DNA from: Candidatus Iainarchaeum sp.
GTDB taxonomy: Archaea; Iainarchaeota; Iainarchaeia; Iainarchaeales; CSSED10-239
Length of the DNA stretch: 26,931 bases
Reading direction: 5' to 3'
Assembly: GCA_028700115.1 (NCBI GenBank)
Contig: JAQVTI010000013.1
Coordinates: 1-26,931 of the forward strand
Part shown: positions 1-26,931 of the stretch, piece by piece
How positions within the stretch are numbered: the stretch's first letter is position 1
How the letters are laid out: each line of letters opens with the position of its first letter
The notes under the pieces: model-generated
Told to the model about the DNA's origin: nothing
Seen by the model: only the letters and a program-made list of their open reading frames with translations
Database searches by the model: none
Position numbers and translations under genes: made by a program

Positions 1-1990
<1,990 letters not shown>

Positions 1991-4071: not shown

Positions 4072-4575
4072 ATGATAAAATATAAATACCCTACAAAAAT
4101 AAATATTAAAGAAGATAATCAATTAAATATAATATATAATAAATATTTTAAAAAAACAAAACAAGAAGCAGATTTAAATTTAAATAAACTAAATTTATTA
4201 ATAAATAAATTCCCAAAATCAGAAACAATAATATATGATAAAAACCCAATTGGAGAAATTACAATAATCCCAACTAATTTAAAAAATATGAACTTGTTTT
4301 TAAAAGAAAAAATAAGTGAACAAGAATTAATAGATAATTCTATAAATAAGGTAAATTTAAAAAATTTTAAATGCATTTATTTATGTTATTTTATAATTTT
4401 AAAAAAATATCGTAGAAAAAAAATAATATATAAACAATTAAAAAAAATTGTAAAATATTATATAAAAATAAATCCAAAAATAACACTTTTTGTTTGGCCC
4501 TTTTCAGAAGTAGGAGAAAAAATTTCAAAAAAATTATCTAATGAATTAAATTTACCAATAATTATTAAAAAATAA
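4072..4575 (+). CDS. Hypothetical Lys-rich protein, start 4 nt after the GTPase stop
   Basis: 167-aa ORF tightly coupled to the upstream gene. A weak GNAT-like segment (ILKKYRRKKIIYKQLKKIV) is not enough for a functional call. Confidence 0.5.
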   Translation: MIKYKYPTKINIKEDNQLNIIYNKYFKKTKQEADLNLNKLNLLINKFPKSETIIYDKNPIGEITIIPTNLKNMNLFLKEKISEQELIDNSINKVNLKNFKCIYLCYFIILKKYRRKKIIYKQLKKIVKYYIKINPKITLFVWPFSEVGEKISKKLSNELNLPIIIKK

Positions 4576-4676: not shown

Positions 4677-5474
4677 ATGAAAATAAATATTGAAAATGAA
4701 AATCTTAAAAAAATAGAAGACTATCTTAAAAAAAGTAAAAATCAAACAATAAAACAAATATCTACTAATTTGAAATTAAATAGAAATACTTGTGCAAAAT
4801 ATTTAGAAATATTAAATGCAAAAAAAACAATAAGAGTAGAAACAAATAGAAAATTTAAAATATATAATATAAACAAAAATAAAAACATAGATTATTTGAC
4901 AAACTACATATCTGAAATTATTTTAATTTATGATGAAAATAAAAAAATTGTTTTTACAAATAAAAATTTTACAGACATATTCAATATTGAAAAAAATGTT
5001 TTAAATAAAAATGTAAATTCAATATTAAAAATAAATACTAACTATTTTTTAAAAGATATTTTAAAAGAAAAAATAATTAATTATAACTGTAGAATTTATG
5101 AAATAAATATATTAGAAGATATAGTTTATAATAATAATGATAACAACACTATGTTAATTTTTAAAGAAAACACCTATAAAAATAATATGAATAATATTAT
5201 GCAAATATATAAACAAAATGCACCTAATATGAATTGTATTGATTTAATTTTTAAAATATTATATTCTAATGAAAATATTATAAAAATAGATTTAATTGAA
5301 AATAATAAAATTATAAAAACAAAAACAAATAAAAAATACCTTGAAAAAACATATACTAAAAAATTTAAAATAAATGCTGAAAAGATAATTAAACTAACTA
5401 CAATTCAAAGAATTGATGAAAAATACAATTGTATTTTAAATGTTATTTTTGATCAAATAAAAAATAAAATTTAA
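4677..5474 (+). CDS. Putative transcriptional regulator: N-terminal winged-HTH plus PAS-like sensor region
   Basis: The N-terminus (IEDYLKKSKNQTIKQISTNLKLNRNTCAKYLEILNAKKTIRV) looks like an archaeal wHTH. The following segment (IILIYDENKKIVFTNKNFTDIFNIEKNVLNKNVNSIL) has a PAS-like pattern. Judged by eye only. Confidence 0.5.
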   Translation: MKINIENENLKKIEDYLKKSKNQTIKQISTNLKLNRNTCAKYLEILNAKKTIRVETNRKFKIYNINKNKNIDYLTNYISEIILIYDENKKIVFTNKNFTDIFNIEKNVLNKNVNSILKINTNYFLKDILKEKIINYNCRIYEINILEDIVYNNNDNNTMLIFKENTYKNNMNNIMQIYKQNAPNMNCIDLIFKILYSNENIIKIDLIENNKIIKTKTNKKYLEKTYTKKFKINAEKIIKLTTIQRIDEKYNCILNVIFDQIKNKI

Positions 5475-10876: not shown

Positions 10877-12787
10877 TTATGAAATTATTCTAACATCTAT
10901 TTCTGATTGTATTTCATTTAAAATTTCATGAGTTGTTGCATTAATATCTGTTGTTTGTTCTTTTATAATACCTACATCAATTAATAATGAATCTATATTT
11001 GTAGCTATATCTCCACTTAAAAGTTGCCAAGTATTTAAAGTAGTTGTATTTATTTGTGAAAGTCTATTATTTTGATCTTCTTGCATTATTGAAATTGCAT
11101 TTCTGATATTATAAATTTCTTTACATAAATCACTTGTATTTGTATCACTTGTTGAACAAAAATTTTCAATATTATTTAAAGAAGAATCTACTGACAAAAA
11201 TCTATTTTCAATTTCAATCATATCTAAATCATTCATAGCATGATTTGTAAGCCAGAATGTGTCTTCTTGTACATTTGCTATATCTGAAGAAATTTGGGCT
11301 AAAAGCAAATCTAATTGAGATGTTAAATTATTTACAAGATTATTTAAAATTATATTACTTAAAGAAGAATTTAAATCCGAAATTTGTGCTTGTATTTTAG
11401 TACCTGTAGATACAACTTGCCCATTTAGATTTAATTCTAAATTATTCAAACTTTCTGTTAAAAGAATATTTGAATCTAAAAACTTTTGAGCAATCAATGC
11501 ATTTGTATTATTAAACTCATTTGTTATTTGAGAAGATAAATCTAAATTTATAGAATTTAATAAATTTGTAAGAGAAGTATCCATCAAATCTATATTTGTA
11601 TTTATTTCTTCTCCAGTAGAAGCAATTGTAGCTAATAAATTAATTTTAACATTATCAAGTTCTGTTAAAACATCTTCAAATCCATCTGTTATTTGAGTAG
11701 ATAAATTTGTATTTAATGTAGTTAAAAGATTTGTTAAAGAAATATTTACATTATTTAAATTAGCATTAATTTGATCTCCTGTATTAGAAACAACTCCTTC
11801 TAAATTTAAATTTACATTTTCTAAACTTAAATTTAAATCATCTATTTCTTGACCTAATTGTGAAGATAAATTATTATTTATTGTATTTAATAATTCTTTT
11901 AAAGAAATATCTAATGAATCTATATTTGTATTTATTTCTTGACCAGTTTGAGAAACAATACCAGAGATTTGTAAATTTACATTCTCTAGATCTGTTTGAA
12001 GAACATTTAAATCAAGATCCATTTGAGAAAGTATTTGAGAATTTACTGAATTTAATAAATTTGTTAAAGATGTATTTGATAAAGATATATTTGTAATAAC
12101 ATCTTGTCCTGTTTGTGTTATATTTCCATTTATTAAAAGAGATACATTATTTAATTCTGTTCCTAATGTATTAACACCTTGTTGTATTTCTGTATTCAAA
12201 CCAGAATTAATATCTTCTAAAATTGTATTTAAGGAAGTATTTAAATTATTTAAATTTGTATTTAATACCTCACCAGTTTGTGCAAGATTTGCATTTATTG
12301 AAACATTTACATCAGATAAATCTAAATCTAAAGAATTACTCATTTCTGTAAGTGTACTAATTTGTTCTAAAGCAGGATTTAAATGAAAAGATTGTGAAGT
12401 TTTAACTTCTTGAGAACCTTTATAACATGTTACTTCTTGTTCATATGTTCCTAAAGGAGCATCAACTAATGAATCTGTTCTAAACCAATTTCCTAAAATA
12501 TTTGATTCTTGTAAAGGCTTATTATCTACAAAGATAGTTTTATCTGGATAAAGTATTGTTACAAAACAATTATCAACTTTATAAGGATTCCCTTTATAAT
12601 CTGCAAGTCTAATAATAGTAGATGCAGCATCATCTTTCCAATATTCTGTATGAGAAACCCATAAAATAGAAACTTCTTCATCTACAACTTTTTGACCATT
12701 CGCATAAGCAGATGCAAAAAATACTGCAGTAAATATAATTACTGCTGCAAGAACATGTTTTAAAATTTTTTTATTATTCTTATTCAT
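10877..12787 (-). CDS. Secreted surface protein: signal peptide, two-Cys N-terminal domain, then Asn/Leu/Thr-rich 55-aa tandem repeats and a C-terminal region
   Basis: Signal-peptide-like N-terminus (VLAAVIIFTAVFFASAYA/NG). AGGTG Shine-Dalgarno (rc of 12794-12798) lies 6 nt before the ATG. The (Q/S/N)TG core recurs at residues 171, 226, 281, 336 and 391 (period exactly 55 aa) and at 461. I counted about 16 N-x-S/T sequons by eye. Confidence 0.8.
   Translation of the reverse strand: MNKNNKKILKHVLAAVIIFTAVFFASAYANGQKVVDEEVSILWVSHTEYWKDDAASTIIRLADYKGNPYKVDNCFVTILYPDKTIFVDNKPLQESNILGNWFRTDSLVDAPLGTYEQEVTCYKGSQEVKTSQSFHLNPALEQISTLTEMSNSLDLDLSDVNVSINANLAQTGEVLNTNLNNLNTSLNTILEDINSGLNTEIQQGVNTLGTELNNVSLLINGNITQTGQDVITNISLSNTSLTNLLNSVNSQILSQMDLDLNVLQTDLENVNLQISGIVSQTGQEINTNIDSLDISLKELLNTINNNLSSQLGQEIDDLNLSLENVNLNLEGVVSNTGDQINANLNNVNISLTNLLTTLNTNLSTQITDGFEDVLTELDNVKINLLATIASTGEEINTNIDLMDTSLTNLLNSINLDLSSQITNEFNNTNALIAQKFLDSNILLTESLNNLELNLNGQVVSTGTKIQAQISDLNSSLSNIILNNLVNNLTSQLDLLLAQISSDIANVQEDTFWLTNHAMNDLDMIEIENRFLSVDSSLNNIENFCSTSDTNTSDLCKEIYNIRNAISIMQEDQNNRLSQINTTTLNTWQLLSGDIATNIDSLLIDVGIIKEQTTDINATTHEILNEIQSEIDVRIIS
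11288..12322 (-). repeat. Intragenic tandem repeats, 165 bp / 55 aa, ~6 units (L-x-N-V-N-x-x-I-x-x-x-x-x-Q-T-G-x-x-I-N-T-N...S-L-T-N-L-L-N)
   Basis: Periodicity was read from the translated protein (residues ~156-500). The units are diverged, not identical. Confidence 0.75.
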
Positions 12788-14912: not shown

Positions 14913-14959
14913 CTTTTTAAAAAAAAGAAAAAAAGACTTAAGAAAATTATTTCTTAAGT
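14913..14959 (-). terminator. Hairpin spanning the MscS stop codon followed by T7/T8 runs on the transcribed strand
   Basis: ACTTAAGAAA-atta-TTTCTTAAGT (14936-14959) has a 10-bp stem, and the TAA stop lies in the loop. Downstream on the minus strand the sequence reads CTTTTTTTCTTTTTTTTAAAAAG. Confidence 0.5.
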
Positions 14960-16014
14960 TCAATTGTTTGTGTAGGATATGCAAAGTCAATTTTTGCTTT
15001 TTCAAATTCTTTTTTAATTTGCATATTTACAGAATCAATTGTTTCAAGATAAATAGCATAATCTACAAAAGAAATATAATAAATTACTGAAATATTTAAA
15101 GAAAATTCCCCAAAAGATTCAAAAGTTACATAAAATATTTCTGAAATTCTTTTTTCTTTTGTTAAAATATTTGTAATTATTTTTTTAGCTTTCTCAAGTT
15201 TTGAAACAGAAGTATCATAAGTTAAGCCTAATTTAACAACTTCTTTTCTTGTAGGTCTTTTCGAGATATTTTCAACAGCTTTTGTAGTTAAATGTGAATT
15301 TGGAAGATTTATTAAAGTTCCATCAAAAGTTCTAATTTTAGAAGACCTAATCCCAACTTCTTCAATTGTTCCAAAACCATCTGATGTTTTTATAATATCA
15401 TCTATCTGAAATGGTTTTTCTGTAAATATAATAATACCACTTAAAAAATTTTCTAAAATATCTTTTGCAGCAAAAGCAATTGCTAAACCCCCAATTCCAA
15501 GTCCTGCTAAAAGAGCACTAATATTATACCCAAAATATTTTAAAACAATTAAAACAGAAATTGTAAATACTATAACCTTACTTAAACCTTTTAAAAGAGG
15601 AATTAATTGATCATCTAATTTAGAATCTGTTTTTCGTGCAATTTTTTCAAAATATTCTTTAATTAATCCTAATAAAAATTTGATTAAAAACAAAGAAAAA
15701 CCTAAAACATACAATAAAAATGAACCTATTCTAATAAATTCTGAAATCCAGGTTAATACATTTAAATATTTAAAACCTATATTAAAAAATATAATTATTA
15801 TAATTATTTTAAAAGGCATAGGTTTTGAAAGAATATTAATAATTATATCATCTAATTTATTTTTTGTAATTTTTGAAATCTTTTTAAAAATATTTAAAGT
15901 TAAAAAAACAAAAATTTTAGATATAATAAAACCTAAAAAAATAAATATTATAAAAATTAAATAAGCCTTAATTGTATTTCCTAAAAAAATATATTCTAAA
16001 AACATAATTATCAC
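14947..16014 (-). CDS. mscS: MscS-family small-conductance mechanosensitive channel
   Basis: The N-terminal half has multiple TM helices. The conserved pore-helix and beta-domain region reads GLGIGGLAIAFAAKDILENFLSGIIIFTEKPFQIDDIIK...GTIEEVGIRSSKIRTFDGTLINLPNS. Confidence 0.9.
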   Translation of the reverse strand: MIIMFLEYIFLGNTIKAYLIFIIFIFLGFIISKIFVFLTLNIFKKISKITKNKLDDIIINILSKPMPFKIIIIIIFFNIGFKYLNVLTWISEFIRIGSFLLYVLGFSLFLIKFLLGLIKEYFEKIARKTDSKLDDQLIPLLKGLSKVIVFTISVLIVLKYFGYNISALLAGLGIGGLAIAFAAKDILENFLSGIIIFTEKPFQIDDIIKTSDGFGTIEEVGIRSSKIRTFDGTLINLPNSHLTTKAVENISKRPTRKEVVKLGLTYDTSVSKLEKAKKIITNILTKEKRISEIFYVTFESFGEFSLNISVIYYISFVDYAIYLETIDSVNMQIKKEFEKAKIDFAYPTQTIELKK

Positions 16015-16169
16015 ATATTATTAATTTTTAAAAAAAATAAAAATTTAATATATAAATTTTTAAAAAATTTTAAAATATTATAATTATTAATAACCAAATC
16101 CTTTATAAAATATTATATTTTTATATATATAGTTTATATAAAAAAAATATATTAAAAGAACGATAATAA

Positions 16170-16859
16170 ATGACAGATTGTGTAGTTGAACTAAGAGATG
16201 TTTCTAAAATCTATAAAATGGGAGAAATAAATGTAAAAGCATTAGATAATGTATCCCTAAAAATTAATAAGGGGGAATTTGTCTCAATTATGGGTCCTTC
16301 TGGTTCTGGAAAATCTACTATGATGCATATTATTGGTGCACTTGATTTGCCTTCTAAAGGAGAAACTCTAATTAACGGAAATAAACTATCTAATCTCTCT
16401 GAAGATGACTTAGCTACTTTAAGAGGGAAAAATATAGGTTTTGTTTTCCAAGAATTTAATTTAATTACAACTCTAACAGCATTTGAAAATGTAAGACTTC
16501 CTATTTTATTTCAAGAAGATGAACTTAAAGAAGAATATAATAAAAGATGTGAAGATTTATTAAAAGAAGTAGGACTTGGAGATAGAATAAATCATAGACC
16601 TACTGAACTTTCTGGAGGTCAACAACAAAGAGTAGCAATCGCAAGATCTCTTGCAAACAATCCTGAAATTCTACTTGCAGATGAACCTACTGGTGCACTT
16701 GATTCTAAATCTTCTAAAGAAATTATGAATGTTTTAAAAAATCTAAATAAAAAAGGAAAAACTGTAATAATTATTACACATGATAAAAATGTAGCAAAAG
16801 AATCAAAAAGACAAATCTTTCTAAAAGATGGAAAAGTTCTAACTGATAAAAAAATGTGA
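16170..16859 (+). CDS. ABC transporter ATP-binding protein, MacB/LolD (COG1136) type
   Basis: Walker A is GPSGSGKST, the signature is LSGGQQQRV and Walker B is ILLADEPT. The Q-loop and H-loop (ITHD) are present. Confidence 0.95.
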   Translation: MTDCVVELRDVSKIYKMGEINVKALDNVSLKINKGEFVSIMGPSGSGKSTMMHIIGALDLPSKGETLINGNKLSNLSEDDLATLRGKNIGFVFQEFNLITTLTAFENVRLPILFQEDELKEEYNKRCEDLLKEVGLGDRINHRPTELSGGQQQRVAIARSLANNPEILLADEPTGALDSKSSKEIMNVLKNLNKKGKTVIIITHDKNVAKESKRQIFLKDGKVLTDKKM

Positions 16860-16867
16860 ATTATTAA

Positions 16868-18058
16868 ATGATAAATATTTTTAATTTTGTTTTAAAAAAT
16901 CTAAAAAGAAGAAAACTTAGAAGCTGGCTTACAATTATAGGTATAATTATTGGTGTATTTGCAATTGTGTCTTTAATGTCACTTTCCCAAGGACTAAAAA
17001 CTAGTATAAATGAACAATTTGGAAAAATGGGTGCAAACAAAATTACAATTGAATCAAAATATACAACTTTTGGTGCAGAAACAGAAATTGGGTTAGGACA
17101 AGAAGATATTAGAAACTTAGAAAAAATAAGTGATTTAGAGTTTGTTTCTGGAGAAGTTAATGCAAATATAAAAACTGAATTTAATGGAGAAATAAATTTT
17201 ATAACTTCAAAAGGATACAATACAGAAAACTTTGAAAGAATTTTAGAACAAGATAATTTTAAACTTCTAAAAGGTAATTTTTTTGAAAATAATAAATCTA
17301 AACAAGTAATAATAGGTTATGATTTTTATAATGAAAAAGATTTGTTTGATAAAAAAATAAATATAAATGATAAATTAGAAATAAATAATGAAAAATATAC
17401 AGTAATTGGTATATTAGAAGACACTGGATCTAGTACAACAAACACATTAATGTATTTTCCAATTGAAACTTTAATTGATATTACAGAAAGCTCAGAAAAT
17501 TCAGTTGATTCAATAATTGCAATTGTAAAACAAGGTAAAGATATTGAAATTGTTTCTAAAAAAATTGAACAAAAACTAGAAATTAAAAGAGGGGAAAAAG
17601 ACTTTACTGTTTCAACTCCAATTGATAAAGCAAAAGATAGAGAAGAAATATTAAACACAGTTTCAATTGTTGTAATTGGAATTGCTGCAATTTCTCTTTT
17701 AGTTGGAGGAATTGGAATAATGAACTCAATGTATACTTCTGTTCTTGAAAGAAGAAAAGAAATTGGGGTATTAAAAGCAATTGGAGCAAAAAGAAAAGAT
17801 ATTCTAAAAATATTTTTATTAGAAGCAGGTTTGATTGGAATAGTTGGAGGGGCAATAGGTACTTTTTTAGGTTTTTTAGTATCTATTCTTGTAAAAATAA
17901 TTAGTAGTTATTTTGAAATAGATCTATTTGTGTCTATAAATATAGAAATAATTATTCTTGCAATTGGATTTTCATTTATAATTGGTTTAATTTCAGGATA
18001 TCTTCCAGCAAACCAAGCATCTAGACAAGAAGCAGTAGATTCTTTAAGAGAAGAATAG
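16868..18058 (+). CDS. ABC transporter permease, MacB/FtsX type (N-terminal TM, large extracytoplasmic domain, C-terminal FtsX 3-TM bundle)
   Basis: N-terminus LKNLKRRKLRSWLTIIGIIIGVFAIV. The FtsX region reads GGIGIMNSMYTSVLERRKEIGVLKAIGAKRKDI...GYLPANQASR. Confidence 0.9.
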   Translation: MINIFNFVLKNLKRRKLRSWLTIIGIIIGVFAIVSLMSLSQGLKTSINEQFGKMGANKITIESKYTTFGAETEIGLGQEDIRNLEKISDLEFVSGEVNANIKTEFNGEINFITSKGYNTENFERILEQDNFKLLKGNFFENNKSKQVIIGYDFYNEKDLFDKKININDKLEINNEKYTVIGILEDTGSSTTNTLMYFPIETLIDITESSENSVDSIIAIVKQGKDIEIVSKKIEQKLEIKRGEKDFTVSTPIDKAKDREEILNTVSIVVIGIAAISLLVGGIGIMNSMYTSVLERRKEIGVLKAIGAKRKDILKIFLLEAGLIGIVGGAIGTFLGFLVSILVKIISSYFEIDLFVSINIEIIILAIGFSFIIGLISGYLPANQASRQEAVDSLREE

Positions 18059-18125
18059 TTTTATAAAGATTTAAATCATAATATATTAAAATATATTTTT
18101 ATATACAAAAAAAGGTGAATTAAAA

Positions 18126-18407
18126 ATGCCAATAAAAAGAAAAAAAACAAATTTAACTAAATCAAAACAAAATATAAGAATGATAGGTAGTAGAACAATT
18201 AAACCAAAAAAAGAAACCATTACAAAATCTTTAACATTATTACAAAAATTATCTCAAATATCTGAAAAAGAAACAAGCTCACTTAGAAAACAAAAAATGC
18301 AAGAAATTACTAAAAATTTACAAGAATCTTTTAAAAAAATAAAAAATGAAGAAAGATTATTAGAATTTAATCAAGAATTAAGATCAACTTTAGAAAAATT
18401 TAAATGA
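18126..18407 (+). CDS. Small Lys-rich hypothetical protein within the ABC cluster
   Basis: 93-aa ORF preceded by a strong GGTGA Shine-Dalgarno box (18114-18118) 7 nt before the ATG. I recognise no family. Confidence 0.6.
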   Translation: MPIKRKKTNLTKSKQNIRMIGSRTIKPKKETITKSLTLLQKLSQISEKETSSLRKQKMQEITKNLQESFKKIKNEERLLEFNQELRSTLEKFK

Positions 18408-18421
18408 AAATATGAGAAATT

Positions 18422-19687
18422 ATGAATTATAAAAAATACTTAATACCTGTAATTTTTGCAATTTTAATAATTAGTTTATTTTCTGTAAATCTATTTGCAG
18501 AAACAATAGATTATGACATAATTAATTTAAATGCAGATAATTACACTTATAGCCCAACTCCAGTGATTTCTGGAGATGAATTTGAATTATGGATACAACT
18601 TACAAACAATAGTAATACAGTTGCAGAAAATATCGAATATATTTTAGAATTAGAATATCCTTTTTCACTTCTAGAAAATAATGAAAACATAGGTACAATT
18701 AAACAACTTGCACCTCATCAAACAAAAGTTATAAAATATGATTTAAAAACAAGTCCTGATGCTTTAGACAGAACTTATAATCTAAATTTTAAATACAAAA
18801 GAAATGGATTTGAAACATATACAATAAAAAATATAGAAATTGATGTTTCTGGAGATAATGCTATAGTTGACATTATATCTTCAAATATTGAAACTGCAGA
18901 AATTGGTAAAAATTCAGAAGTTTCTTTAACTATAAAAAATTTAGGTGGAAAAAACGCAAAAGATATTTTTATAACTTTAGATAATTCTGAAGACACATAC
19001 ATAAATATTTTAGATCTTAAAACAAAATATATAGAAAATTTAGAAATTGGTTCTGAACAAATTATAAAATTTAGAATAAATGTATCTAAAAATGCAAGCC
19101 TTAATAGTTATACTCTACCTATTACAATAGAATACAAAGATAATGATGGAAATTATGAAACTAATAGAAATATAGGTATAGAAATTATTGATAATCCTGA
19201 AATAATTACTAATATCCTATCAGTTGGGGAAAATTATAAACTTAAGGCAAACTCAACTGAGAAAATTTCTCTTGAAATTTATAATATAGGAAATGTAGAT
19301 GCTGAATCTGTATATATTAATTTAATATCAGACATCGCAAATGCACCATCTTATTTTATAGGTTCAATTGAAAAAGATAATTATGATAGTATTGAACTAG
19401 ACTTACAAACAAGAAACATAACTCTAGGAGAATACAATATAACTCTTGAAGTTTACTATAAAGATAGAAATTTAAAAGAACAAATGATACAAAAAGAAAT
19501 AACTATAGAAATTGTTTCTCAAACAGGAGCAAAATCAGGAGTAACTAGTGTAATATCTATAATCTTTGGAATATTAGGTTTTATTATAGGACTATCAATT
19601 TTAGTACTTTTATTAAAATGGTTGACTAAGATTTTAATAAAACCTGCTTTAAAAGAAATTAAAGGAATTTTTAGAAAAAAGAAATAA
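18422..19687 (+). CDS. Surface protein with repeated CARDB/COG1361-like (S-layer-domain type) Ig-fold modules, N-terminal signal and C-terminal TM anchor
   Basis: Signal YLIPVIFAILIISLFSVNLFA. Recurrent modules read SLTIKNLGGKNAKDIFITL and SLEIYNIGNVDAESVYINL. The C-terminal segment VISIIFGILGFIIGLSILVLLL carries a basic tail. Confidence 0.75.
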   Translation: MNYKKYLIPVIFAILIISLFSVNLFAETIDYDIINLNADNYTYSPTPVISGDEFELWIQLTNNSNTVAENIEYILELEYPFSLLENNENIGTIKQLAPHQTKVIKYDLKTSPDALDRTYNLNFKYKRNGFETYTIKNIEIDVSGDNAIVDIISSNIETAEIGKNSEVSLTIKNLGGKNAKDIFITLDNSEDTYINILDLKTKYIENLEIGSEQIIKFRINVSKNASLNSYTLPITIEYKDNDGNYETNRNIGIEIIDNPEIITNILSVGENYKLKANSTEKISLEIYNIGNVDAESVYINLISDIANAPSYFIGSIEKDNYDSIELDLQTRNITLGEYNITLEVYYKDRNLKEQMIQKEITIEIVSQTGAKSGVTSVISIIFGILGFIIGLSILVLLLKWLTKILIKPALKEIKGIFRKKK

Positions 19688-19734
19688 TCTTTCTTTTTTC
19701 CTAAAATATTTTTTATTTTTAAAAAGTGTAATTA

Positions 19735-20967
19735 ATGAATTCTGAAAAAATTAAATATCTATTAAATCTAGTTTTAAAAAATATTAAAAAAAGAAAACTA
19801 AGATCAATTCTTACAATTTTATCTGTAACAATTGGAATTGCATCAATTATCGCACTTATTCTAATTAGTGAAGGTTTATTTAATTCTGTTAAAAAACAAT
19901 TTATGGATATGGGAATTAACAATATTTATATAACTCCAGTAAATTTTGGAGGAGGAGCAAATGGAGAATTTGGGGCTTCTTCAAGACTTAGTGATGATAT
20001 TAAACTTACAGAAAGAGATGTAAAAGATATTGAAAGGCTTGCAGAAGTCAATAAAGTCTTTGGAATAAGTTATAAGATTGGAAAAATAACAGTTTCAAAT
20101 CAAGATGAATATGCCTTTGTAATAATGGCAGATAGAAAAAAAGCAGATGGTATATTTGAAACAATGAACCTAGAAATTGAAAAAGGAACTTCTCTTCAAG
20201 GAAAAAGTGGGCATGTTGCTATAATAGGTTCTTATTTTGCAGATGGTTTATTTGAAAAAGAAGTAAAGATTGGAAGCAAGATTAAAATTAAAGAAGTTGA
20301 CTTTAAAATAATTGGAATACTAGAAACTATTGGAAATACACAAGATGATTCACAAATATATATACCTCAAGATGCAGGAAATGAAATTTTTGGAACTTCA
20401 GATGAACTTCAACAAATCATGGTGACTATTAAAGATGGTTATGATGTAGATGAAGTTAAGGAAAAAATTGAAAAAAAATTAGAAAAAACACATCAAGAAA
20501 ATACATTTACTGTAATAACTGCAAAACAAATATTAAGTCTTATTAGAAATATACTAAATAGTCTTCAAATTTTATTAATAACAATTGCAGCAATTTCTGT
20601 AATTGTTGGAAGTGTAGGTATAATGAATTCAATTTATACTTCAGTAATTGAAAGAACTAAAGAAGTTGGTATATTAAAATCAATTGGTGCTAAAATAAGT
20701 GACATATTATTTATATTTGTATCAGAATCTATAATACTATCAATAATTGGTGGAGTAATAGGGCTTGTTTTTGGAATTGGTCTTGCAAAAGCAGTAGAAT
20801 GGTATGCTTCATATAGAAATTTTGATATGCTTCAAATAATAATAAATCCAGAAATTATAATAATTACTTTAATTTTATCAATCATAATAGGTTTGATTGC
20901 TGGGGTTTTACCTGCAAGAAAAGCTGCCAAAATGAATGCAGTTGATGCTTTAAAAAATATTAATTAA
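19735..20967 (+). CDS. Second MacB/FtsX-type ABC permease (paralogue of 16868-18058)
   Basis: N-terminus LKNIKKRKLRSILTILSVTIGIASI. The FtsX region reads GSVGIMNSIYTSVIERTKEVGILKSIGAKISDI...GVLPARKAAK. Confidence 0.9.
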   Translation: MNSEKIKYLLNLVLKNIKKRKLRSILTILSVTIGIASIIALILISEGLFNSVKKQFMDMGINNIYITPVNFGGGANGEFGASSRLSDDIKLTERDVKDIERLAEVNKVFGISYKIGKITVSNQDEYAFVIMADRKKADGIFETMNLEIEKGTSLQGKSGHVAIIGSYFADGLFEKEVKIGSKIKIKEVDFKIIGILETIGNTQDDSQIYIPQDAGNEIFGTSDELQQIMVTIKDGYDVDEVKEKIEKKLEKTHQENTFTVITAKQILSLIRNILNSLQILLITIAAISVIVGSVGIMNSIYTSVIERTKEVGILKSIGAKISDILFIFVSESIILSIIGGVIGLVFGIGLAKAVEWYASYRNFDMLQIIINPEIIIITLILSIIIGLIAGVLPARKAAKMNAVDALKNIN

Positions 20968-21915: not shown

Positions 21916-21988
21916 GCCTCTATAGCTCAGTGGCTAGAGCAACAGTCTTGTAAACTGTAGGTCGAGGGTTCAAATCCCCCTAGAGGCT
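21916..21988 (+). tRNA. tRNA-Thr (anticodon UGU), no encoded CCA
   Basis: Cloverleaf folded by hand. The acceptor is GCCTCTA/TAGAGGC and the D arm is GCTC-AGTGGCTA-GAGC. The anticodon arm is ACAGT-CTTGTAA-ACTGT and the variable loop is AGGTC. The T arm is GAGGG-TTCAAAT-CCCCC (one A:C mismatch) and the discriminator is T. An oligo-T run follows immediately. Confidence 0.9.
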
Positions 21989-22059
21989 TTTATTTTTTGG
22001 GATATAGCTAACCCGCTTTTTTTGTACGGTTTTTAATTATTTCTATATAATTTATTTAT

Positions 22060-22542
22060 ATGGGTAGATTAGATTATTTAAATAAAATTAGATCTGATAT
22101 AAAACTATGTGATGAAAATTATATAAAATCAAATAATAGATTTAAAAAAATTAAATGTGAGCGATTATTACAAAACACAAATTATAAACAAAAATACCCT
22201 CTTTATTTAAATTTTGATTTAGAAAAAAGATTAATTGAATTAATAAATAATAAGAAATATAATTTTACTTTTTTTGATATTATTAAATTTTCGGAAAAAC
22301 ATAATGAATACACAAATTATTTTTTAGATGTTGCACATGATCTTATAAAAATTAAGGAATTATCGGAAAAAAAAGAAATAAATGATTTTACTTATAAATT
22401 TGTTTTATTGTCTTTATATTCTAATAATTTTGATTATATTATTAATTATTTAAAACCGACTGCAAAAGCAATACAATCAACTAATTCAAATAATTCTCAA
22501 TATAAAAAAGAAACTAGAAATGGATCAAAAAAATATATATGA
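22060..22542 (+). CDS. Hypothetical protein (possibly the N-terminal part of a frameshifted gene continuing in 22520-22885)
   Basis: 160-aa ORF that ends 9 nt after an A7 run (22527-22533). The next ORF starts inside it in the +1 frame. Confidence 0.5.
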   Translation: MGRLDYLNKIRSDIKLCDENYIKSNNRFKKIKCERLLQNTNYKQKYPLYLNFDLEKRLIELINNKKYNFTFFDIIKFSEKHNEYTNYFLDVAHDLIKIKELSEKKEINDFTYKFVLLSLYSNNFDYIINYLKPTAKAIQSTNSNNSQYKKETRNGSKKYI

Positions 22543-22885
22543 GAATGATGCTGATAGTACATTAAAAATAATACAAATCTGGGACCCGAAGTTCCATAAG
22601 TTCCTTTTAAAATTTTTAAACAAAGATTTAAGAAATTCTTTTGCTCATTCAAATTATTATATTAAAAATAATACAATTTATTACAATGTAGATAAGAAAA
22701 AGCAAAAAAAAATCAACATAGATACTATATTATCTTATTTTATAAATTGTGGATTATTTATTAATAAAATTCAGAATTTTGACTTTAAATATAGAAGTAT
22801 ATGTTATAGAAAACTGTTACAAAAAAAGATAATTAAGAAAAACATAGGCGAATATATTAAAAATATTTGTCTTTCCAATACTTAA
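22520..22885 (+). CDS. Hypothetical protein with a HEPN-type Rx4H motif (LRNSFAHSNY)
   Basis: 121-aa ORF. RNSFAH matches the R-N-x-x-A-H form of the HEPN RNase motif seen in Abi-type and DUF4145-type proteins. It is a single-motif call. Confidence 0.45.
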   Translation: MDQKNIYENDADSTLKIIQIWDPKFHKFLLKFLNKDLRNSFAHSNYYIKNNTIYYNVDKKKQKKINIDTILSYFINCGLFINKIQNFDFKYRSICYRKLLQKKIIKKNIGEYIKNICLSNT

Positions 22886-25418
22886 CATGGCTTCTTGTTT
22901 TGAAGCCATATTTTTCTTTCAATTCTTTATTACTTAATGTTTCTAAATCTCTTTTGAATTGATCATTATTTTTATATTCTATTGGCTTAAATGGATTTAG
23001 TGCTTCTTCATCAATATTATTTGCTTCTTTTCCTATATATTGAATGTCATTTGAAATAATTGATTTTCTTTCAAGATAACCAATATCTCCATTAAATTTC
23101 TTTTCAAGATGATCATAAAAATCTAAAATGGTATTTCCTAAGGCTTTCCAATATTCTATACCATTCTTGATTTCTCCAGTTTTATAATCAATAAAATCAC
23201 TATAAACTGCTTCTTGTGGATCTTTCCCAAAAGGTATTAATGGTTTAACATTATCTTTAGTAGTAAATCCAACATAAACAAAATTAAAGGGTTTTATATG
23301 GTTTAAATATTCTTTATCTTTATTCATTAGATTAAATCTTCTCATAACATTTGGAGTGGAAATTGTTAATTTTGCTATTCCATATAACCCAGAATATTTT
23401 TCAAATGTAATACCTTCTGTAATACTTCCATAATATATTTGTATTACAATCTGCCAAATTTCTTTGTGCCAATCAGCTATTTTACTATTATAAGGGTTAA
23501 TTAGATGCCCTAATCCATGTAATTTATAGTCAATAATGTCTATTGTATTACATTTTAATTGATATAAACAATATCTCTTACTACAAATCCCATAAAATAA
23601 TAGATTTTCTTTATCTTTCTTAAGTATTGGAATGTTTAACTCATAAGGATTTAAGTAATTAAAGTAATTAATTATCTTATTAGATATGTCTGGAGAAACA
23701 AAAATACTATCTGTATCCATATAATAGTGTTTCTGCCCTTCTTTTTCTGCTATTGTTTGAGCAATTGTTAAGAATAACCTAGCCCCTGAAGTTATTATAG
23801 TTGCTAAAACAGGATTAAAATATCTCCCTTCTGCTTCTACATGGTTAGTTTTAGATTTAAATTCATTTAAACCATATATTTTTTGTTCTTGATTAATTAC
23901 TTTTGTATTTAATTCAATAAAAATACCATAACTAAGAGCATTTACTAAAATTTTTAGTGATTTTTGCTTACTATTATTTAAATTGTAATCTTTATGGTCT
24001 TTAGGGGTATTCTTTAGCATTTGTCTTTCTTCTACAAGTATCTTAATTAGATTATCTTTCTTTGGATCTATATCAATTCCAACAACATTTGAAGATTTGA
24101 GAGTGTCTTGAATACCTTTTGGAATAAATCTAATTGCTTTAATTATCTCAGGAACTTTATTTATATAAATTTTAGAAGCAATAACATCAGGGAGAGAATA
24201 CCAAACTTCTTGATTACTGGTTAAATAGTTTAAACCAACATTATTTGTTTTATTATCTCCTTTGTAATCCATCCTAATTGGTAAAAAATCATTATTTGGT
24301 TTAATTTTTACTAACACATTAAACATTTTATATATTTTTTTATCTTTTAATTGTTCTAAATCAATATTTTTTAATAAACCTTTAATTTCTAGAGTAACAT
24401 CTTCAGTTATTATTTCTTTAGCAATAATAAAATCCCAAATATCATATAGAATAGTAATTGTTGGATACATAGAAGTAAAGTCAAGAACATCTGTAAGAAT
24501 TGGTTTTTTTCTATAATTGCATTCACATCTTCCCCCATAATAAGAAGTCATTATGTTTCCTAATATAGATTTATCAAAATCAGGATTATTTTCTCTAAAT
24601 GGATTAATACCTAATTGATTTAAAGCATATTTTCCTAAAGAAGCTGAACTATATACTTTTGTTATTGGAATATCAATATTATATCTTTCAAATTCAGAAA
24701 CTAATTTTGTATATACATTATAAGTTGTTAAAACATCATAAATGTTATAATCAATATATTCTTTAGTTATTTTGCCATGTTCATTAGTTTTTTGTTTTTT
24801 TGTAGTTGTGTTTAATATTTCTCCTACTTTTGATAAACTAATATGTTTTTGTTCTAATAATATTTCTGCTAATTTTTGAACATCTAAAAAATTTCCAGAA
24901 AAATAATCTTCTTTTCTATTCTTAAAGGTTCTTTGAAAACTAAAAGAATAGGCATCTCCTAGTTTTTTAATTACTATTGGAGGATTATTTTTATTTTCAG
25001 ATAACTTAAATGTAAAGCCACCTTTATTATTATTTCTTGAATTTGTAAAATTAAATGCAATTCTGGACAAATCAAAAGCTAAATTAAAACCAATACATAA
25101 TGCTTTAGAATGAAACACTTGATAATAAAAGACTTTATCTATAAATTCTTGTAATGTATATACAGGAATGCCTTTTTGTTTTGAATAGCGATTTAATATT
25201 TCTAATTCTATAGAACTTAAATTATCATAAAATAAACCTTGTTTTATTACTACATTATTTAGATATACTTGAAAAAAGCCAAATTTTAAATTTTGATATT
25301 CATCAGTTGTAGTTTCTGTATCAAATACTAAAACCCTATTGTGTTTTGTTTTAGTTTCAAGTAAATTATTCTGTCTTTTCTTTGTCGGAGCATAAGCCCT
25401 CAATTGTATGCTTTTCAT
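22857..25418 (-). CDS. polB: Family B DNA polymerase of the protein-primed (phi29-like) architectural type, with a ~235-aa C-terminal extension
   Basis: ExoI is VFDTETT (D33/E35), ExoII is FNLAFD and ExoIII is YNIYD. YxGG is SYYGGR, motif A is DFTSMYP and motif B is KILVNALSYG. Tx2(A/G)R is TSGAR, motif C is YYMDTDS and KxY is KRY. There is no N-terminal domain before ExoI, unlike cellular replicative archaeal PolBs. A GGAGA box lies ~10 nt upstream of the ATG. Confidence 0.9.
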   Translation of the reverse strand: MKSIQLRAYAPTKKRQNNLLETKTKHNRVLVFDTETTTDEYQNLKFGFFQVYLNNVVIKQGLFYDNLSSIELEILNRYSKQKGIPVYTLQEFIDKVFYYQVFHSKALCIGFNLAFDLSRIAFNFTNSRNNNKGGFTFKLSENKNNPPIVIKKLGDAYSFSFQRTFKNRKEDYFSGNFLDVQKLAEILLEQKHISLSKVGEILNTTTKKQKTNEHGKITKEYIDYNIYDVLTTYNVYTKLVSEFERYNIDIPITKVYSSASLGKYALNQLGINPFRENNPDFDKSILGNIMTSYYGGRCECNYRKKPILTDVLDFTSMYPTITILYDIWDFIIAKEIITEDVTLEIKGLLKNIDLEQLKDKKIYKMFNVLVKIKPNNDFLPIRMDYKGDNKTNNVGLNYLTSNQEVWYSLPDVIASKIYINKVPEIIKAIRFIPKGIQDTLKSSNVVGIDIDPKKDNLIKILVEERQMLKNTPKDHKDYNLNNSKQKSLKILVNALSYGIFIELNTKVINQEQKIYGLNEFKSKTNHVEAEGRYFNPVLATIITSGARLFLTIAQTIAEKEGQKHYYMDTDSIFVSPDISNKIINYFNYLNPYELNIPILKKDKENLLFYGICSKRYCLYQLKCNTIDIIDYKLHGLGHLINPYNSKIADWHKEIWQIVIQIYYGSITEGITFEKYSGLYGIAKLTISTPNVMRRFNLMNKDKEYLNHIKPFNFVYVGFTTKDNVKPLIPFGKDPQEAVYSDFIDYKTGEIKNGIEYWKALGNTILDFYDHLEKKFNGDIGYLERKSIISNDIQYIGKEANNIDEEALNPFKPIEYKNNDQFKRDLETLSNKELKEKYGFKTRSHVKYWKDKYF

Positions 25419-25695
25419 TTAGTAATCTCTCCAGTTTCAATAATTCATCTCCTATTGTTTTCAATAAACTACCTATTGAAATTAATAGAAACTTTAGTTT
25501 TTTAGTGTCATTAAAATTAGATCTCTCTTTTGGCGATAATTTGTTTTGGTCATAAGTAGTTTTATTATGGCAATTATTACAAAGTGCTATTGTATAATTA
25601 GAATTAACTTTTCCAAAAACATGATGTTTTTCTATTTTTCTAATAACTGCTGGATGATCTTCTCCACAGATAGCACATTGTAATTTATCTTCCAT
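25366..25695 (-). CDS. HNH-type zinc-finger endonuclease
   Basis: CAICGEDH...EKHHVFGK...NYTIALCNNCHNK has CxxC ... HH ... N ... CxxCH spacing. The start is 2 nt after the upstream stop, and the 3' end overlaps the polB start by 53 nt. Confidence 0.75.
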   Translation of the reverse strand: MEDKLQCAICGEDHPAVIRKIEKHHVFGKVNSNYTIALCNNCHNKTTYDQNKLSPKERSNFNDTKKLKFLLISIGSLLKTIGDELLKLERLLNEKHTIEGLCSDKEKTE

Positions 25696-25697
25696 AT

Positions 25698-26333
25698 TTA
25701 TCTATCCCTATATATTTCTAAAAATTCTGGTTCTTCAATAGAGTTTTCATAATCTTTAACTTTATTAAGATCAGTTTCAAGTTTATGATATTTTCCACTA
25801 GCATCTTTTAATCTAATTTTTTTATATTTTTCAAGATAACTTGCATCTCCTGATCTTAGTGCTTTTTTAATATTTGAAAAATATTCCCCGATTATTGATC
25901 TATCTTTAGAACTTGTAACAATTATATGATTTATCCCTAAATCTTTTTCATAAATCATCATAGAAGTTTGTAAATAATCTTTAGAAAGAACTGCCCACCT
26001 ATTGTTTTTCTTAAATAGATATTTTCCAAGATGTTTTTGTATTAATTCTTTTGTTATGCCTAAATTATTGATTACAGAATTAAGTGTTTCTTTATTTCTT
26101 ATTCTTCTTATTGCTGAAATAACTAGATTTCTTTCTCTTTTTTCTTTTTTTGTTAGATCTATCCATTTCTTATTACTAATTAGAAAATCACTAAAGTTTA
26201 ATTTAGATAATTCAGATAATGTTTTATTAGGTAATATGTAATGTTTTGCGATTATAGATCTTCCATATCTTGTTTTTCTATTCCCTGCTTTTAGCCAAGA
26301 AGTAAAACTTCTATATTTTCTAGAAAACATCAT
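25698..26333 (-). CDS. Hypothetical basic protein of the polymerase operon (HTH-like segment; function unknown)
   Basis: 211-aa ORF whose ATG overlaps the stop of the RHH ORF (ATGATG). The segment ETLNSVINNLGITKELIQKHLG is HTH-like. I recognise no family. Confidence 0.6.
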   Translation of the reverse strand: MMFSRKYRSFTSWLKAGNRKTRYGRSIIAKHYILPNKTLSELSKLNFSDFLISNKKWIDLTKKEKRERNLVISAIRRIRNKETLNSVINNLGITKELIQKHLGKYLFKKNNRWAVLSKDYLQTSMMIYEKDLGINHIIVTSSKDRSIIGEYFSNIKKALRSGDASYLEKYKKIRLKDASGKYHKLETDLNKVKDYENSIEEPEFLEIYRDR

Positions 26334-26479
26334 TTCCCCTCTTCTTGTTCTATATATTCTTTCAAATGGTAATAAAGTGCAATTCTTACAACTTCTGATT
26401 CAGAACATTCTCTTATTACTGAAGCTGTTTCAATTGCTCTCTTTACATTCTTTGGAATTGTTATTATCATTCTGGTCAT
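26330..26479 (-). CDS. Ribbon-helix-helix (CopG/Arc/MetJ-like) DNA-binding protein, 49 aa; not in the supplied ORF track
   Basis: Hand translation gives MTRMIITIPKNVKRAIETASVIRECSESEVVRIALYYHLKEYIEQEEGK, which has a beta-strand/helix/helix pattern. A GGTGA Shine-Dalgarno box lies 5 nt before the ATG. The TGA stop overlaps the ATG of the next gene. Confidence 0.7.
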   Translation of the reverse strand: MTRMIITIPKNVKRAIETASVIRECSESEVVRIALYYHLKEYIEQEEGK

Positions 26480-26520
26480 ATCAATCACCGTTTAATTATT
26501 AAATAACTTATGAGACAACC

Positions 26521-26590
26521 GTATGATATATATATTTGATATAGATTTTGATATAGAAATAGATATATATTTAAATATATCGTGATATAT
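26521..26590. promoter_or_regulatory. Iteron-like array of five GATATA(G/T)A motifs in the divergent control region between the RHH operon and the wHTH gene
   Basis: GATATA occurs at 26525, 26538, 26550, 26562 and 26584, with spacings of 13, 12, 12 and 22 bp. Two copies share the longer form TTGATATAGA. Confidence 0.55.
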
Positions 26591-26630
26591 ATTATATTAT
26601 AACTGATAACTAATTTGAAAGGTAAATTAT

Positions 26631-26931
26631 ATGGTTAAAGAAGACAATAGCAAAATTATTGAATTTGTTAAAGAAAAGAGATTTATACCTAAGACCGAAT
26701 TAAAAGAGTATATTATAAAAGAACAAAATTGTAGTGATATTACTGCCAATAGAAAGATAGATGCTCTTATTTCTTTAGGAAAACTAATAAAAATTAATAA
26801 AACTGAATATTCTACATATAACATAACAGAAACAGATAACAGGGTTGTATATATTGGTTTAAAACAAAATAAAGAAATAATAAAATATGTTCAAGACAGA
26901 TTATATGATTTAAAAAAAGAAACATCTCCTT
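26631..26931 (+). CDS. Winged-HTH-like protein, 5' part only (open to the window end); not in the supplied ORF track
   Basis: Hand translation gives MVKEDNSKIIEFVKEKRFIPKTELKEYIIKEQNCSDITANRKIDALISLGKLIKINKTEYSTYNIT.... There are 100 codons with no stop, and an AAGGTAA box lies upstream. It is divergent from the RHH operon. Confidence 0.6.
   Translation, partial: MVKEDNSKIIEFVKEKRFIPKTELKEYIIKEQNCSDITANRKIDALISLGKLIKINKTEYSTYNITETDNRVVYIGLKQNKEIIKYVQDRLYDLKKETSP

Follow-up and report, generated by a model that had tools for sequence, protein, structure and literature searches.

The PolB-side half of a probable family-2 casposon at a tRNA-Thr(UGU) gene of a DPANN archaeon

What kind of element begins at the 3′ end of the tRNA-Thr(UGU) gene on a 26,931-bp contig of Candidatus Iainarchaeum sp. 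(GenBank assembly GCA_028700115.1, JAQVTI010000013.1)? The window analyzed here is this entire source contig (it includes protein PHN22_03910), and the element is cut by the contig end. A preliminary description, made from the letters alone, had noted that the gene content switches right after the tRNA and that a minus-strand operon, a divergent region, and a truncated winged helix-turn-helix (wHTH) gene follow. It had read this as the end of an integrated self-synthesizing element whose class could not be decided. We found the same layout, coordinate for coordinate, and relatives with Cas1, terminal inverted repeats (TIRs), and 14-bp target-site duplications (TSDs) bear out the element end at the tRNA-Thr 3′ end. 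The same three features, seen in near-identical copies and complete relatives, also settle the class as casposon. Positions 21999-26931 very probably represent the PolB-side ~4.9 kb of a family-2 casposon inserted at the 3′ end of tRNA-Thr(UGU) and truncated just before Cas1.

The part beyond the contig end can be read from near-identical contigs. Locus L038 is 98.7% identical to window positions 24299-26931 over 2,633 nt, L028, L039, and L040 are 98.3-98.7% identical to the last 593 nt, and L007 is 97.5% identical to the last 482 nt. All of them run on into a 278-aa wHTH-helical gene and then a Cas1 of 392-393 aa and, because they do so, the window element almost certainly carries Cas1 directly past position 26931. 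A methyltransferase and a restriction enzyme follow Cas1 in near-identical copies (PADLOC MTase_II 2e-53; REase_II 3e-15 and 2e-35). Complete relatives measure 7.7-8.4 kb and have imperfect TIRs opening GGG(A/T)TATA and an exact 14-bp TSD. Among them, L004 is a complete element on an 8.6-kb JGI contig that reads tRNA-Thr(UGU), an Eco47II-like restriction enzyme, a Dcm methylase, Cas1 (393 aa), a 279-aa wHTH protein, and the divergent region, and, beyond the latter, a ribbon-helix-helix (RHH) protein, a 213-aa protein, an HNH nuclease, PolB, and two small cargo genes. Its Cas1 matches Protein Data Bank (PDB) entry 6OPM end to end (residues 1-393, E 4.9e-129), the casposase-DNA complex of Methanosarcina mazei (PMC6977970), and is thus a predicted casposase. 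Another relative, L009, is an 8,368-bp element adjoining tRNA-Thr(UGU) in the closed genome of "Ca. Forterrea multitransposorum."

The target is the only tRNA that ARAGORN and Rfam find in the window, a tRNA-Thr(UGU) at 21916-21988 on the plus strand (anticodon TGT; RF00005, 71.4 bits), whose 3′ end adjoins the element; tRNA-Thr(UGU) likewise adjoins the related elements in L004, L009/L042, L038, and L040. In the complete relatives, the first 4 nt of the TSD are the last 4 nt of this tRNA. After the tRNA, the window continues with GGCTTTTATTTTTT and then GGGATATAGCTAACCCGCTTTTTTTGTACGGTTTTTA, and since this stretch can be aligned in register with the relatives' TIRs, we placed the proximal TSD copy at 21985-21998 (plus strand) and the start of the TIR at 21999. 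The former is in register with the exact 14-bp TSDs of L004 (GGCTTTCTATTTTT), L009 (GGCTTCTTTTTATT), and L040 (GGCTCTTTTTTATT). The PolB-side TIR (GGGATATAGCTAACCCGCTTTTTTTGTACGGTTTTTAATT...; 21999-22059, plus strand, with an approximate inner boundary) aligns with both TIR arms of L004. The distal TSD copy lies past the contig end, and the window shows the proximal one only. A TIR motif, GGG(A/T)TATA-N(8-16)-TTTGTACG, is found at the element end in the window and at the ends of L004, L009, L038, L039, L040, and the Methanolobus loci. The two TIR arms of L004 agree at 66 of 90 positions, including all of the first 15 nt, and both junctions show a 17-nt exact repeat, GGCTTTCTATTTTTGGG, which is most economically read as the 14-bp TSD GGCTTTCTATTTTT plus the GGG that opens each TIR. 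A 17-nt exact repeat, GGCTCTTTTTTATTGGG, is found in L040 too, with both TIR arms seen, and in the closed Forterrea genome (L009, CP045477.1), the TIR arms at 4100-4135 and 12432-12467 are flanked on both sides by a perfect 14-bp AATAAAAAGAAGCC.

Some flanks beyond the distal TSD themselves resemble a TIR tip. They open with GGGATAT(A) in L004:8540-8553, L039 (~5310-5325), and L040:7791-7806, and the flank in the closed Forterrea genome is ATTTTATTTT, with no such likeness. In Methanolobus, L013, L016, and L030 show the TIR tip GGGATATAG past the distal TSD, in L016 and L030 with the full TIR motif of a tandem copy, and tandem TIR-TSD-TIR junctions are seen at Methanolobus loci. The GGGATAT stubs may have been left by earlier insertions at this tRNA-proximal site or belong to the native target.

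The core of family 2 is described as a Cas1 with a C-terminal HTH, a PolB with a similar HTH, an HNH nuclease, and two HTH proteins, one with helical repeats (PMC4046053). In assigning the family, we looked for an extra C-terminal HTH of ~60-70 aa in Cas1 and for a TSD that overlaps the last 4-7 nt of the tRNA and leaves the tRNA intact. The element combines an HTH-bearing Cas1 (in near-identical copies), an HTH-bearing casposon PolB, HNH, TIRs, and a ~14-bp tRNA-overlapping TSD. The C termini of PolB and Cas1 proteins are related in profile comparison (hhalign probability 94.4%, E 8.6e-8), and both "HTH protein" genes can be recognized from their position and their homology to the Methanosarcinales core, with weak domain matches. 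The host range departs from the described family, which is a matter of distribution and not of mechanism: family 2 is limited to euryarchaea (2023 review), and the host here belongs to Iainarchaeota.

In core genes and their order, the element is like the family-2 casposons of Methanosarcinales (M. mazei, Methanolobus psychrophilus, Methanococcoides burtonii; Krupovic 2014, 2016; Hickman 2020), with ~50-54% identity in PolB and ~50-57% in Cas1. The TIR tips are nearly identical (window GGGATATAGCTAAC, Methanolobus GGGATATAGGTAAC). The TSD is likewise of the M. mazei type, 14 bp that start with the last 4 nt of the tRNA and turn AT-rich; in M. mazei, the 14-bp TSD overlaps the tRNA by 4 bp and consists of a conserved tetranucleotide and then AT-rich sequence (PMC6977970). 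Both groups occur in both orientations, leave tandem or remnant copies at the target, and carry restriction-modification (R-M) cargo. They differ in the host, which is a DPANN archaeon and not a euryarchaeal methanogen, in the target, which is tRNA-Thr(UGU) with a TSD starting GGCT instead of tRNA-Leu or tRNA-Pro with CGCA, in the small size of the tRNA-Thr elements (7.7-8.4 kb), and in their Cas1, which forms its own clade in a rough neighbor-joining (NJ) tree. AciBoo-C1 of Aciduliprofundum boonei, which we compared by description only, is a family-2 casposon at a tRNA 3′ end as well (tRNA-Pro, TSD of 14-15 bp), but its polymerase is of the "PolB_CDTDS" type, whereas motif C of the window PolB reads YMDTDS.

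The preliminary description had pointed to family-1 casposons and pipolins. The family-1 casposons of Thaumarchaeota are also Cas1-dependent self-synthesizing transposons with a PolB architecture like that of protein-primed PolBs (pPolBs). Their casposase has no HTH domain (PMC8464041), and they target aEF-2 and have a different gene set that includes a candidate terminal protein (PMC4046053). We rejected family 1 on the HTH-bearing Cas1, the tRNA target, and the family-2 core gene set, in which HNH and the two presumed HTH proteins, together with this Cas1, also speak against a pipolin affinity. Pipolins encode piPolB and tyrosine recombinases, and their boundaries are direct att repeats that stem from the tRNA. 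A pipolin-like or integrase island, with a primer-independent PolB, a tyrosine recombinase, and att repeats at the tRNA, would account for the 3′-end target and for the compact PolB with ExoI near its N terminus and a PF03175 match, and pipolins are self-synthesizing and adjoin tRNA genes too. Complete relatives, however, carry Cas1 and have no tyrosine or serine recombinase within their TIRs, their ends are inverted repeats with a 14-bp TSD instead of long direct att repeats, and the closest PolB relatives all lie beside Cas1. We give such an island next to no credence, and the family-2 assignment stands.

An assigned casposon could still be an immobile relic, a decayed copy that became fixed at this site in the Forterrea lineage and has since been passed on vertically. 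The Forterrea element does lie at the same host locus, PolB is split there (522 + 288 aa) and in L005, and the cargo gene of the window is frameshifted. The element is also host-like in composition, as first described (GC 0.231 versus 0.215 in the host; window mean ~22%), although the GGTGA Shine-Dalgarno box said to be common to both precedes just 1 of the 7 genes of the element and 1 of the 17 of the host, so that it is no feature typical of the two. Against a relic, the PolB, HNH, 211-aa, and RHH genes of the window are intact, and the TSDs of the relatives are still perfect. Conserved core synteny had been named as the pattern that would speak against an insertion; relatives share the locus, but with a TIR, a TSD, and Cas1. 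This is not core synteny because the element is inverted between the window and Forterrea, the cargo differs in every copy, the 98.7%-identical L038 lies next to another tRNA-Thr variant, and divergence is far greater in the host flanks (~70% identity) than in the elements. More broadly, the window and L040 have the PolB side next to the tRNA, and L004, L009/L042, and L038 have the Cas1 side there. The long residence proposed earlier is contradicted by copies of 97.5-98.7% identity in other contexts and in opposite orientation, and their occurrence across samples, in either orientation and with exchanged cargo, suggests recent activity. In Methanosarcina, insertion in both orientations at a single tRNA and tandem copies with a common TSD have been described (PMC4779613). 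We consider the relic unlikely.

The near-identical copies also vary in their gene content. L040:125-7776 (also L028) is a complete 7.65-kb element with a 14-bp TSD at tRNA-Thr and 98-99% identity to the RHH/wHTH/Cas1 region of the window, in which the 211-aa, HNH, and PolB genes are swapped for a membrane protein, an ABC-ATPase fragment, a 330-aa double-HTH protein, and a 225-aa gene; its RHH open reading frame (ORF) is fused to a tail matching the C terminus of the 330-aa protein. This composition suggests a casposon derivative that has no PolB and is not self-synthesizing. In three related copies, the cargo on the Cas1 side is a type II R-M pair, a different system in each: an N6/N4 methyltransferase with a restriction enzyme in L007:2187-3646, a second methyltransferase with a restriction enzyme in L040:5949-7690, and Eco47II with Dcm in L004:188-1831.

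Which organism hosts the element, and is the junction real? Window genes at 14944-20959 are syntenic with the tRNA-Thr flank of the 698-kb Forterrea-like contig L042, at 67-71% nucleotide identity. Forterrea belongs to Iainarchaeota in the DPANN kingdom Nanobdellati, and the host is a Forterrea-like Iainarchaeota archaeon, in agreement with the DPANN-like host first proposed. An assembly or binning artefact, in which a host contig has been joined to foreign DNA at the tRNA, would fit the sibling assemblies L001 and L002, both of which stop within tRNA-Thr, the latter in an Illumina adapter. Yet the Logan assembly L043, which comes from a different run, covers the 3′ half of the tRNA, the next 14 nt, the TIR, and the cargo ORFs with zero differences from the window, and because this independent assembly matches base for base, the tRNA-element junction is not chimeric. 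The closed Forterrea genome and the 698-kb contig show the same tRNA-to-casposon arrangement next to syntenic host genes, too, which makes an artefact extremely improbable.

A few details of the assemblies are recorded here. The adapter end in the metagenome-assembled genome (MAG) contig L002 (GCA_028691725.1, JAQUYT010000066.1) lies at 4082-4095 (GAGATCGGAAGAGC) within the tRNA-Thr gene. Two Logan contigs, L001 at its end and L043 at its start, break at one point inside the tRNA (..TAGAGCAAC), corresponding to window positions 21935-21944 and not to the element boundary; the shared break point suggests that a second community sequence with a common tRNA 5′ half lies behind it. At its other end, the window opens with an archaeal 23S rRNA gene (1-1990, minus strand; model positions 1-2025 of 2987) that is cut by the contig start and has a GC content of ~43% versus ~21% across the remaining contig.

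Several points weigh against our interpretation of positions 21999-26931 as the PolB side of a casposon. The Cas1, the right TIR, and the second TSD of this copy lie outside the window, and we infer them from near-identical copies in other samples; as the 98%-identical L040/L028 element is without the 211-aa/HNH/PolB block, the unseen side of the window copy could differ, too. The GGGATAT flanks of L004, L039, and L040 resemble the window TIR tip and leave a small ambiguity in where the window TIR starts. No unoccupied tRNA-Thr site was obtained, the host-flank look-ups giving only contigs that end inside the tRNA. Finally, with the cargo gene frameshifted in the window and PolB disrupted in the Forterrea and L005 copies, any single copy may or may not be active.

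How is the element copied? Its operon is tightly packed on the minus strand in the order RHH (49 aa), 211-aa protein, HNH, and 853-aa PolB, and the ORFs confirm these first-described sizes. The last gene (22857-25418, minus strand) encodes an intact family-B DNA polymerase with a C-terminal HTH (PF03175, E 1.2e-10). Its motifs are ExoI FDTET with D33, YYGG at 293, motif A at 313, motif B KILVNALSYG at 489, TSGAR at 543, DTDS at 568, and SKRY at 613, so that ExoI at residue 33 and the YxGG and TSGAR motifs are as first described, whereas the distance from motif B to DTDS, given as ~75 aa, measures 79 aa; that between motifs A and B is 176 aa. All catalytic motifs are invariant in the homologue alignment, and motif C reads YMDTDS in 24 of 24 homologues. 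A search of 5.8 billion proteins returned three close relatives (100%, 84%, and 65% identity), the last being the PolB of the complete element L004, and further hundreds of ~890-aa proteins of ~50% identity from Methanococcoides, Methanolobus, Methanosarcina, and related methanogens. The Methanosarcinales relatives (~50-54%) are encoded beside Cas1. Exact-protein look-ups of PolB and of the 211-aa protein found nothing.

Sequence and fold give mixed signals on the kind of polymerase. By sequence, only archaeal PolBs are matched in PDB (phmmer; 5MDN, E 4.9e-4). The AlphaFold (AF2) model (pLDDT 77.6, pTM 0.75) places phi29 polymerase first in PDB (Foldseek E 7e-13, TM 0.57 per target), with archaeal PolBs and Pol alpha at TM 0.26-0.40, and against viral models (BFVD), the top eight include the pPolBs of Sulfolobus ellipsoid virus 1, His1, a tectivirus, and phage GA-1. 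The label "phi29-like" thus holds for fold and compact architecture and fails for sequence. ExoI at residue 33 and the long A-B and B-C spacings partly fit a compact phi29/pPolB-like architecture, as modeled; relative to the DNA_pol_B_2 pPolBs of the phi29, His1, and tectivirus type, the protein has ~280 extra C-terminal residues, and a terminal-protein gene was not identified. Going by its sequence, it is a member of the casposon PolB group rather than of the phi29-type pPolBs proper. A provirus or linear plasmid with a protein-primed PolB would explain why the nearest folds are viral protein-primed PolBs, but there is no capsid, packaging, or terminal-protein gene in the complete 7.7-8.4-kb relatives, a tblastn search with PolB gave no match in 50,697 phage and archaeal-virus records, and a scan of viral contigs found no relative of the wHTH protein. 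We judge this origin to be exceedingly unlikely, and a casposon PolB remains our reading of the gene.

Family-2 casposon PolBs have been called RNA-primed and PolB3-related (PMC4046053, PMC4779613), and the A. boonei casposon PolB was placed in a separate cluster, "PolB_CDTDS," linked to both the main PolB and the pPolB groups (Kazlauskas 2020). The mixed signals of the window PolB agree with such a dual link, and the modeled fold questions the RNA-primed label. Because the closest structural relatives are protein-primed, which leaves conventional RNA priming in doubt, we tentatively raise a possibility that we would not yet favor: the family-2 PolB may be protein-primed, possibly via the 211-aa protein with its invariant Y23, Y151, and Y208, or primer-independent like piPolB. 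If this were true, family-2 casposons would be fully self-priming, suiting hosts with minimal replication machinery such as those with 0.8-Mb DPANN genomes.

Two observations concern other copies of the polymerase. The PolB of Forterrea (L009:5369-7950) is broken between motifs B and C, that of L005:1460-3975 is split into 246 + 563 aa, and the PolBs of the window and L004 are intact. A ~890-aa casposon-type PolB, P0045, 51% identical to that of the window, carries the NCBI label "Tissierellia bacterium," which could be a binning error or a bacterial copy.

The first gene of the operon (26330-26479, minus strand) encodes the RHH protein, 49 aa from ATG or 52 aa from GTG. On its own it has no Pfam match; it is 62% identical to its L004 orthologue, which itself scores above the Pfam RHH_1 threshold (22.3 bits versus a cut-off of 20.5, E 1.2e-4). 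The second gene (25698-26333, minus strand) encodes a conserved basic 211-aa core protein, recognized by position and homology as the second "HTH protein" of the literature, which holds the same position in most loci that keep the PolB operon, in DPANN and Methanosarcinales alike. Weak HTH_40 matches occur in 2 of 12 family members, the family profile has no meaningful relative in PDB, and the single-sequence structure model is unusable (pLDDT 43.5). The third (25366-25695, minus strand) encodes a 109-aa HNH-type nuclease with a CxxC..HH..CxxCH signature, identified by its family profile, which matches the HNH domain of McrA (6GHC, E 3.2e-6). Its zinc and catalytic residues C7, C10, H24, H25, C39, N41, C42, and H43 (CxxC...HH...CxNCH) are invariant; the Pfam HNH models give weak matches to 4 of 14 family members and no significant one to the window protein on its own.

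Between the two transcription units lies a divergent control region of ~150 nt (26480-26630) with TGATAT(A/G) repeats at ~12-nt spacing, a block that is kept in L004, L005, L009, L038, and L040. These repeats may constitute an operator. The TIR tip contains GATATAG (22001-22007), a 7-mer found 10 times in the window where 3.7 would be expected. We set aside the idea that the divergent repeats copy the TIR tip and that one protein binds both, the likeness being that of a 7-mer only and showing no co-variation in L009. On the other side of the region begins the gene for the wHTH and helical-repeat ("HTH-h") protein (26631-26931, plus strand; ATG at 26631), of which the contig end leaves the first 100 codons; the fragment is 99% identical in amino acids to the 278-aa proteins of L007 and L028. 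The 279-aa protein of L004 has weak domain matches to HTH_DeoR (E 0.2) and a TPR-like repeat (E 7e-4).

Next to the PolB-side TIR, the preliminary description had seen two small plus-strand ORFs. They are one broken gene of ~275 aa (22060-22885, plus strand), because homologues of 265-271 aa (P0245, P0246) span both halves: their N-terminal half corresponds to the 160-aa ORF (22060-22542) and their C-terminal half to the 121-aa ORF (22520-22885; E 1e-15 and 5e-22). The frameshift lies at an A-run (22526-22535), and the same split is found in the independent assembly L043. This cargo gene has an Rx4H motif (DLRNSFAH), belongs to no Pfam or PADLOC family, and is present in none of the related loci compared; a word-seeded database search with the 121-aa half finds only itself. 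It adjoins the PolB-side TIR, and the R-M pair of the sister copies lies on the Cas1 side.

How might such an element move? By analogy with what is known biochemically and structurally of the M. mazei and A. boonei casposases, a tetramer of Cas1 would recognize the tRNA 3′ segment and the 14-bp target and link the 3′-OH groups of the TIR ends to the two strands of the target at positions 14 bp apart, in either orientation. Gap repair would then make the 14-bp duplication and leave the tRNA intact. The element's own PolB would copy the element, and the HNH nuclease and the 211-aa protein may help in excision, end processing, or replication. Regulation of the two operons probably falls to the RHH and wHTH proteins, whose genes flank the repeat-rich divergent region. 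The genes beside each TIR are variable cargo, the frameshifted Rx4H gene here and the type II R-M pair on the Cas1 side of sister copies.

To what extent is this core found beyond the Forterrea-like lineage? In a Cas1-seeded scan of GTDB genomes for related loci, Cas1, PolB, a small HNH-like gene, and a ~211-aa gene recur as a core in 20-odd loci. The arrangement of RHH, 211-aa, HNH, and PolB on one side and HTH-h and Cas1 on the other is common to Methanosarcinales and to Woesearchaeota and Nanoarchaeota MAGs; Methanolobus psychrophilus R15, for example, has Cas1 and a ~300-aa gene diverging from genes of 47 and 212 aa and PolB, with a second Cas1 nearby. Family-2-type cores were seen in L011, L015, L018, L019, L022, L023, and L032 (Woesearchaeota and Nanoarchaeota MAGs) and in L021 and L024 (unclassified archaeal MAGs). 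Surveyed across phyla, the target consists of the last 4 nt of the tRNA plus 10 nt, followed by a TIR opening GGG(A/T)(A/T)ATA. The tRNA itself varies: L021 and L010 (a Methanosarcinales MAG) target tRNA-Gln with exact 14-bp repeats, L021 at tRNA-Gln(UUG) with a 15-nt exact repeat whose copies are 9.0 kb apart, the Methanolobus target is tRNA-Leu with the published CGCA motif, and in L015 (a Nanoarchaeota MAG), the element lies 10 nt past tRNA-Ser(GCU). DPANN and Methanosarcinales sequences are intermixed in the rough NJ trees, a hint that DPANN archaea and methanogens have exchanged such elements.

The CRISPR adaptation module is proposed to descend from casposons. In the descriptions consulted, family 2 is confined to euryarchaeal methanogens and A. 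boonei. We found no report of a DPANN casposon in the accessible parts of the literature treating casposons and DPANN, an earlier mention elsewhere being possible, and no casposon paired with tRNA-Thr in the literature searched. The genome paper of Forterrea makes no mention of Cas1, CRISPR, or a polymerase, and its text leaves out the 8.4-kb casposon, which makes up ~1% of the closed 0.84-Mb genome. The element type, with its textbook family-2 anatomy, is known; the host phylum, the tRNA target, and the TSD motif are new. The small tRNA-Thr elements provide tractable material for biochemistry, and tRNA-Thr(UGU)/GGCT is a second natural target motif to compare with the CGCA of M. mazei. Intact-looking, TSD-flanked family-2 casposons in DPANN archaea thus widen the host range of the family and leave the known concept of casposons unchanged.

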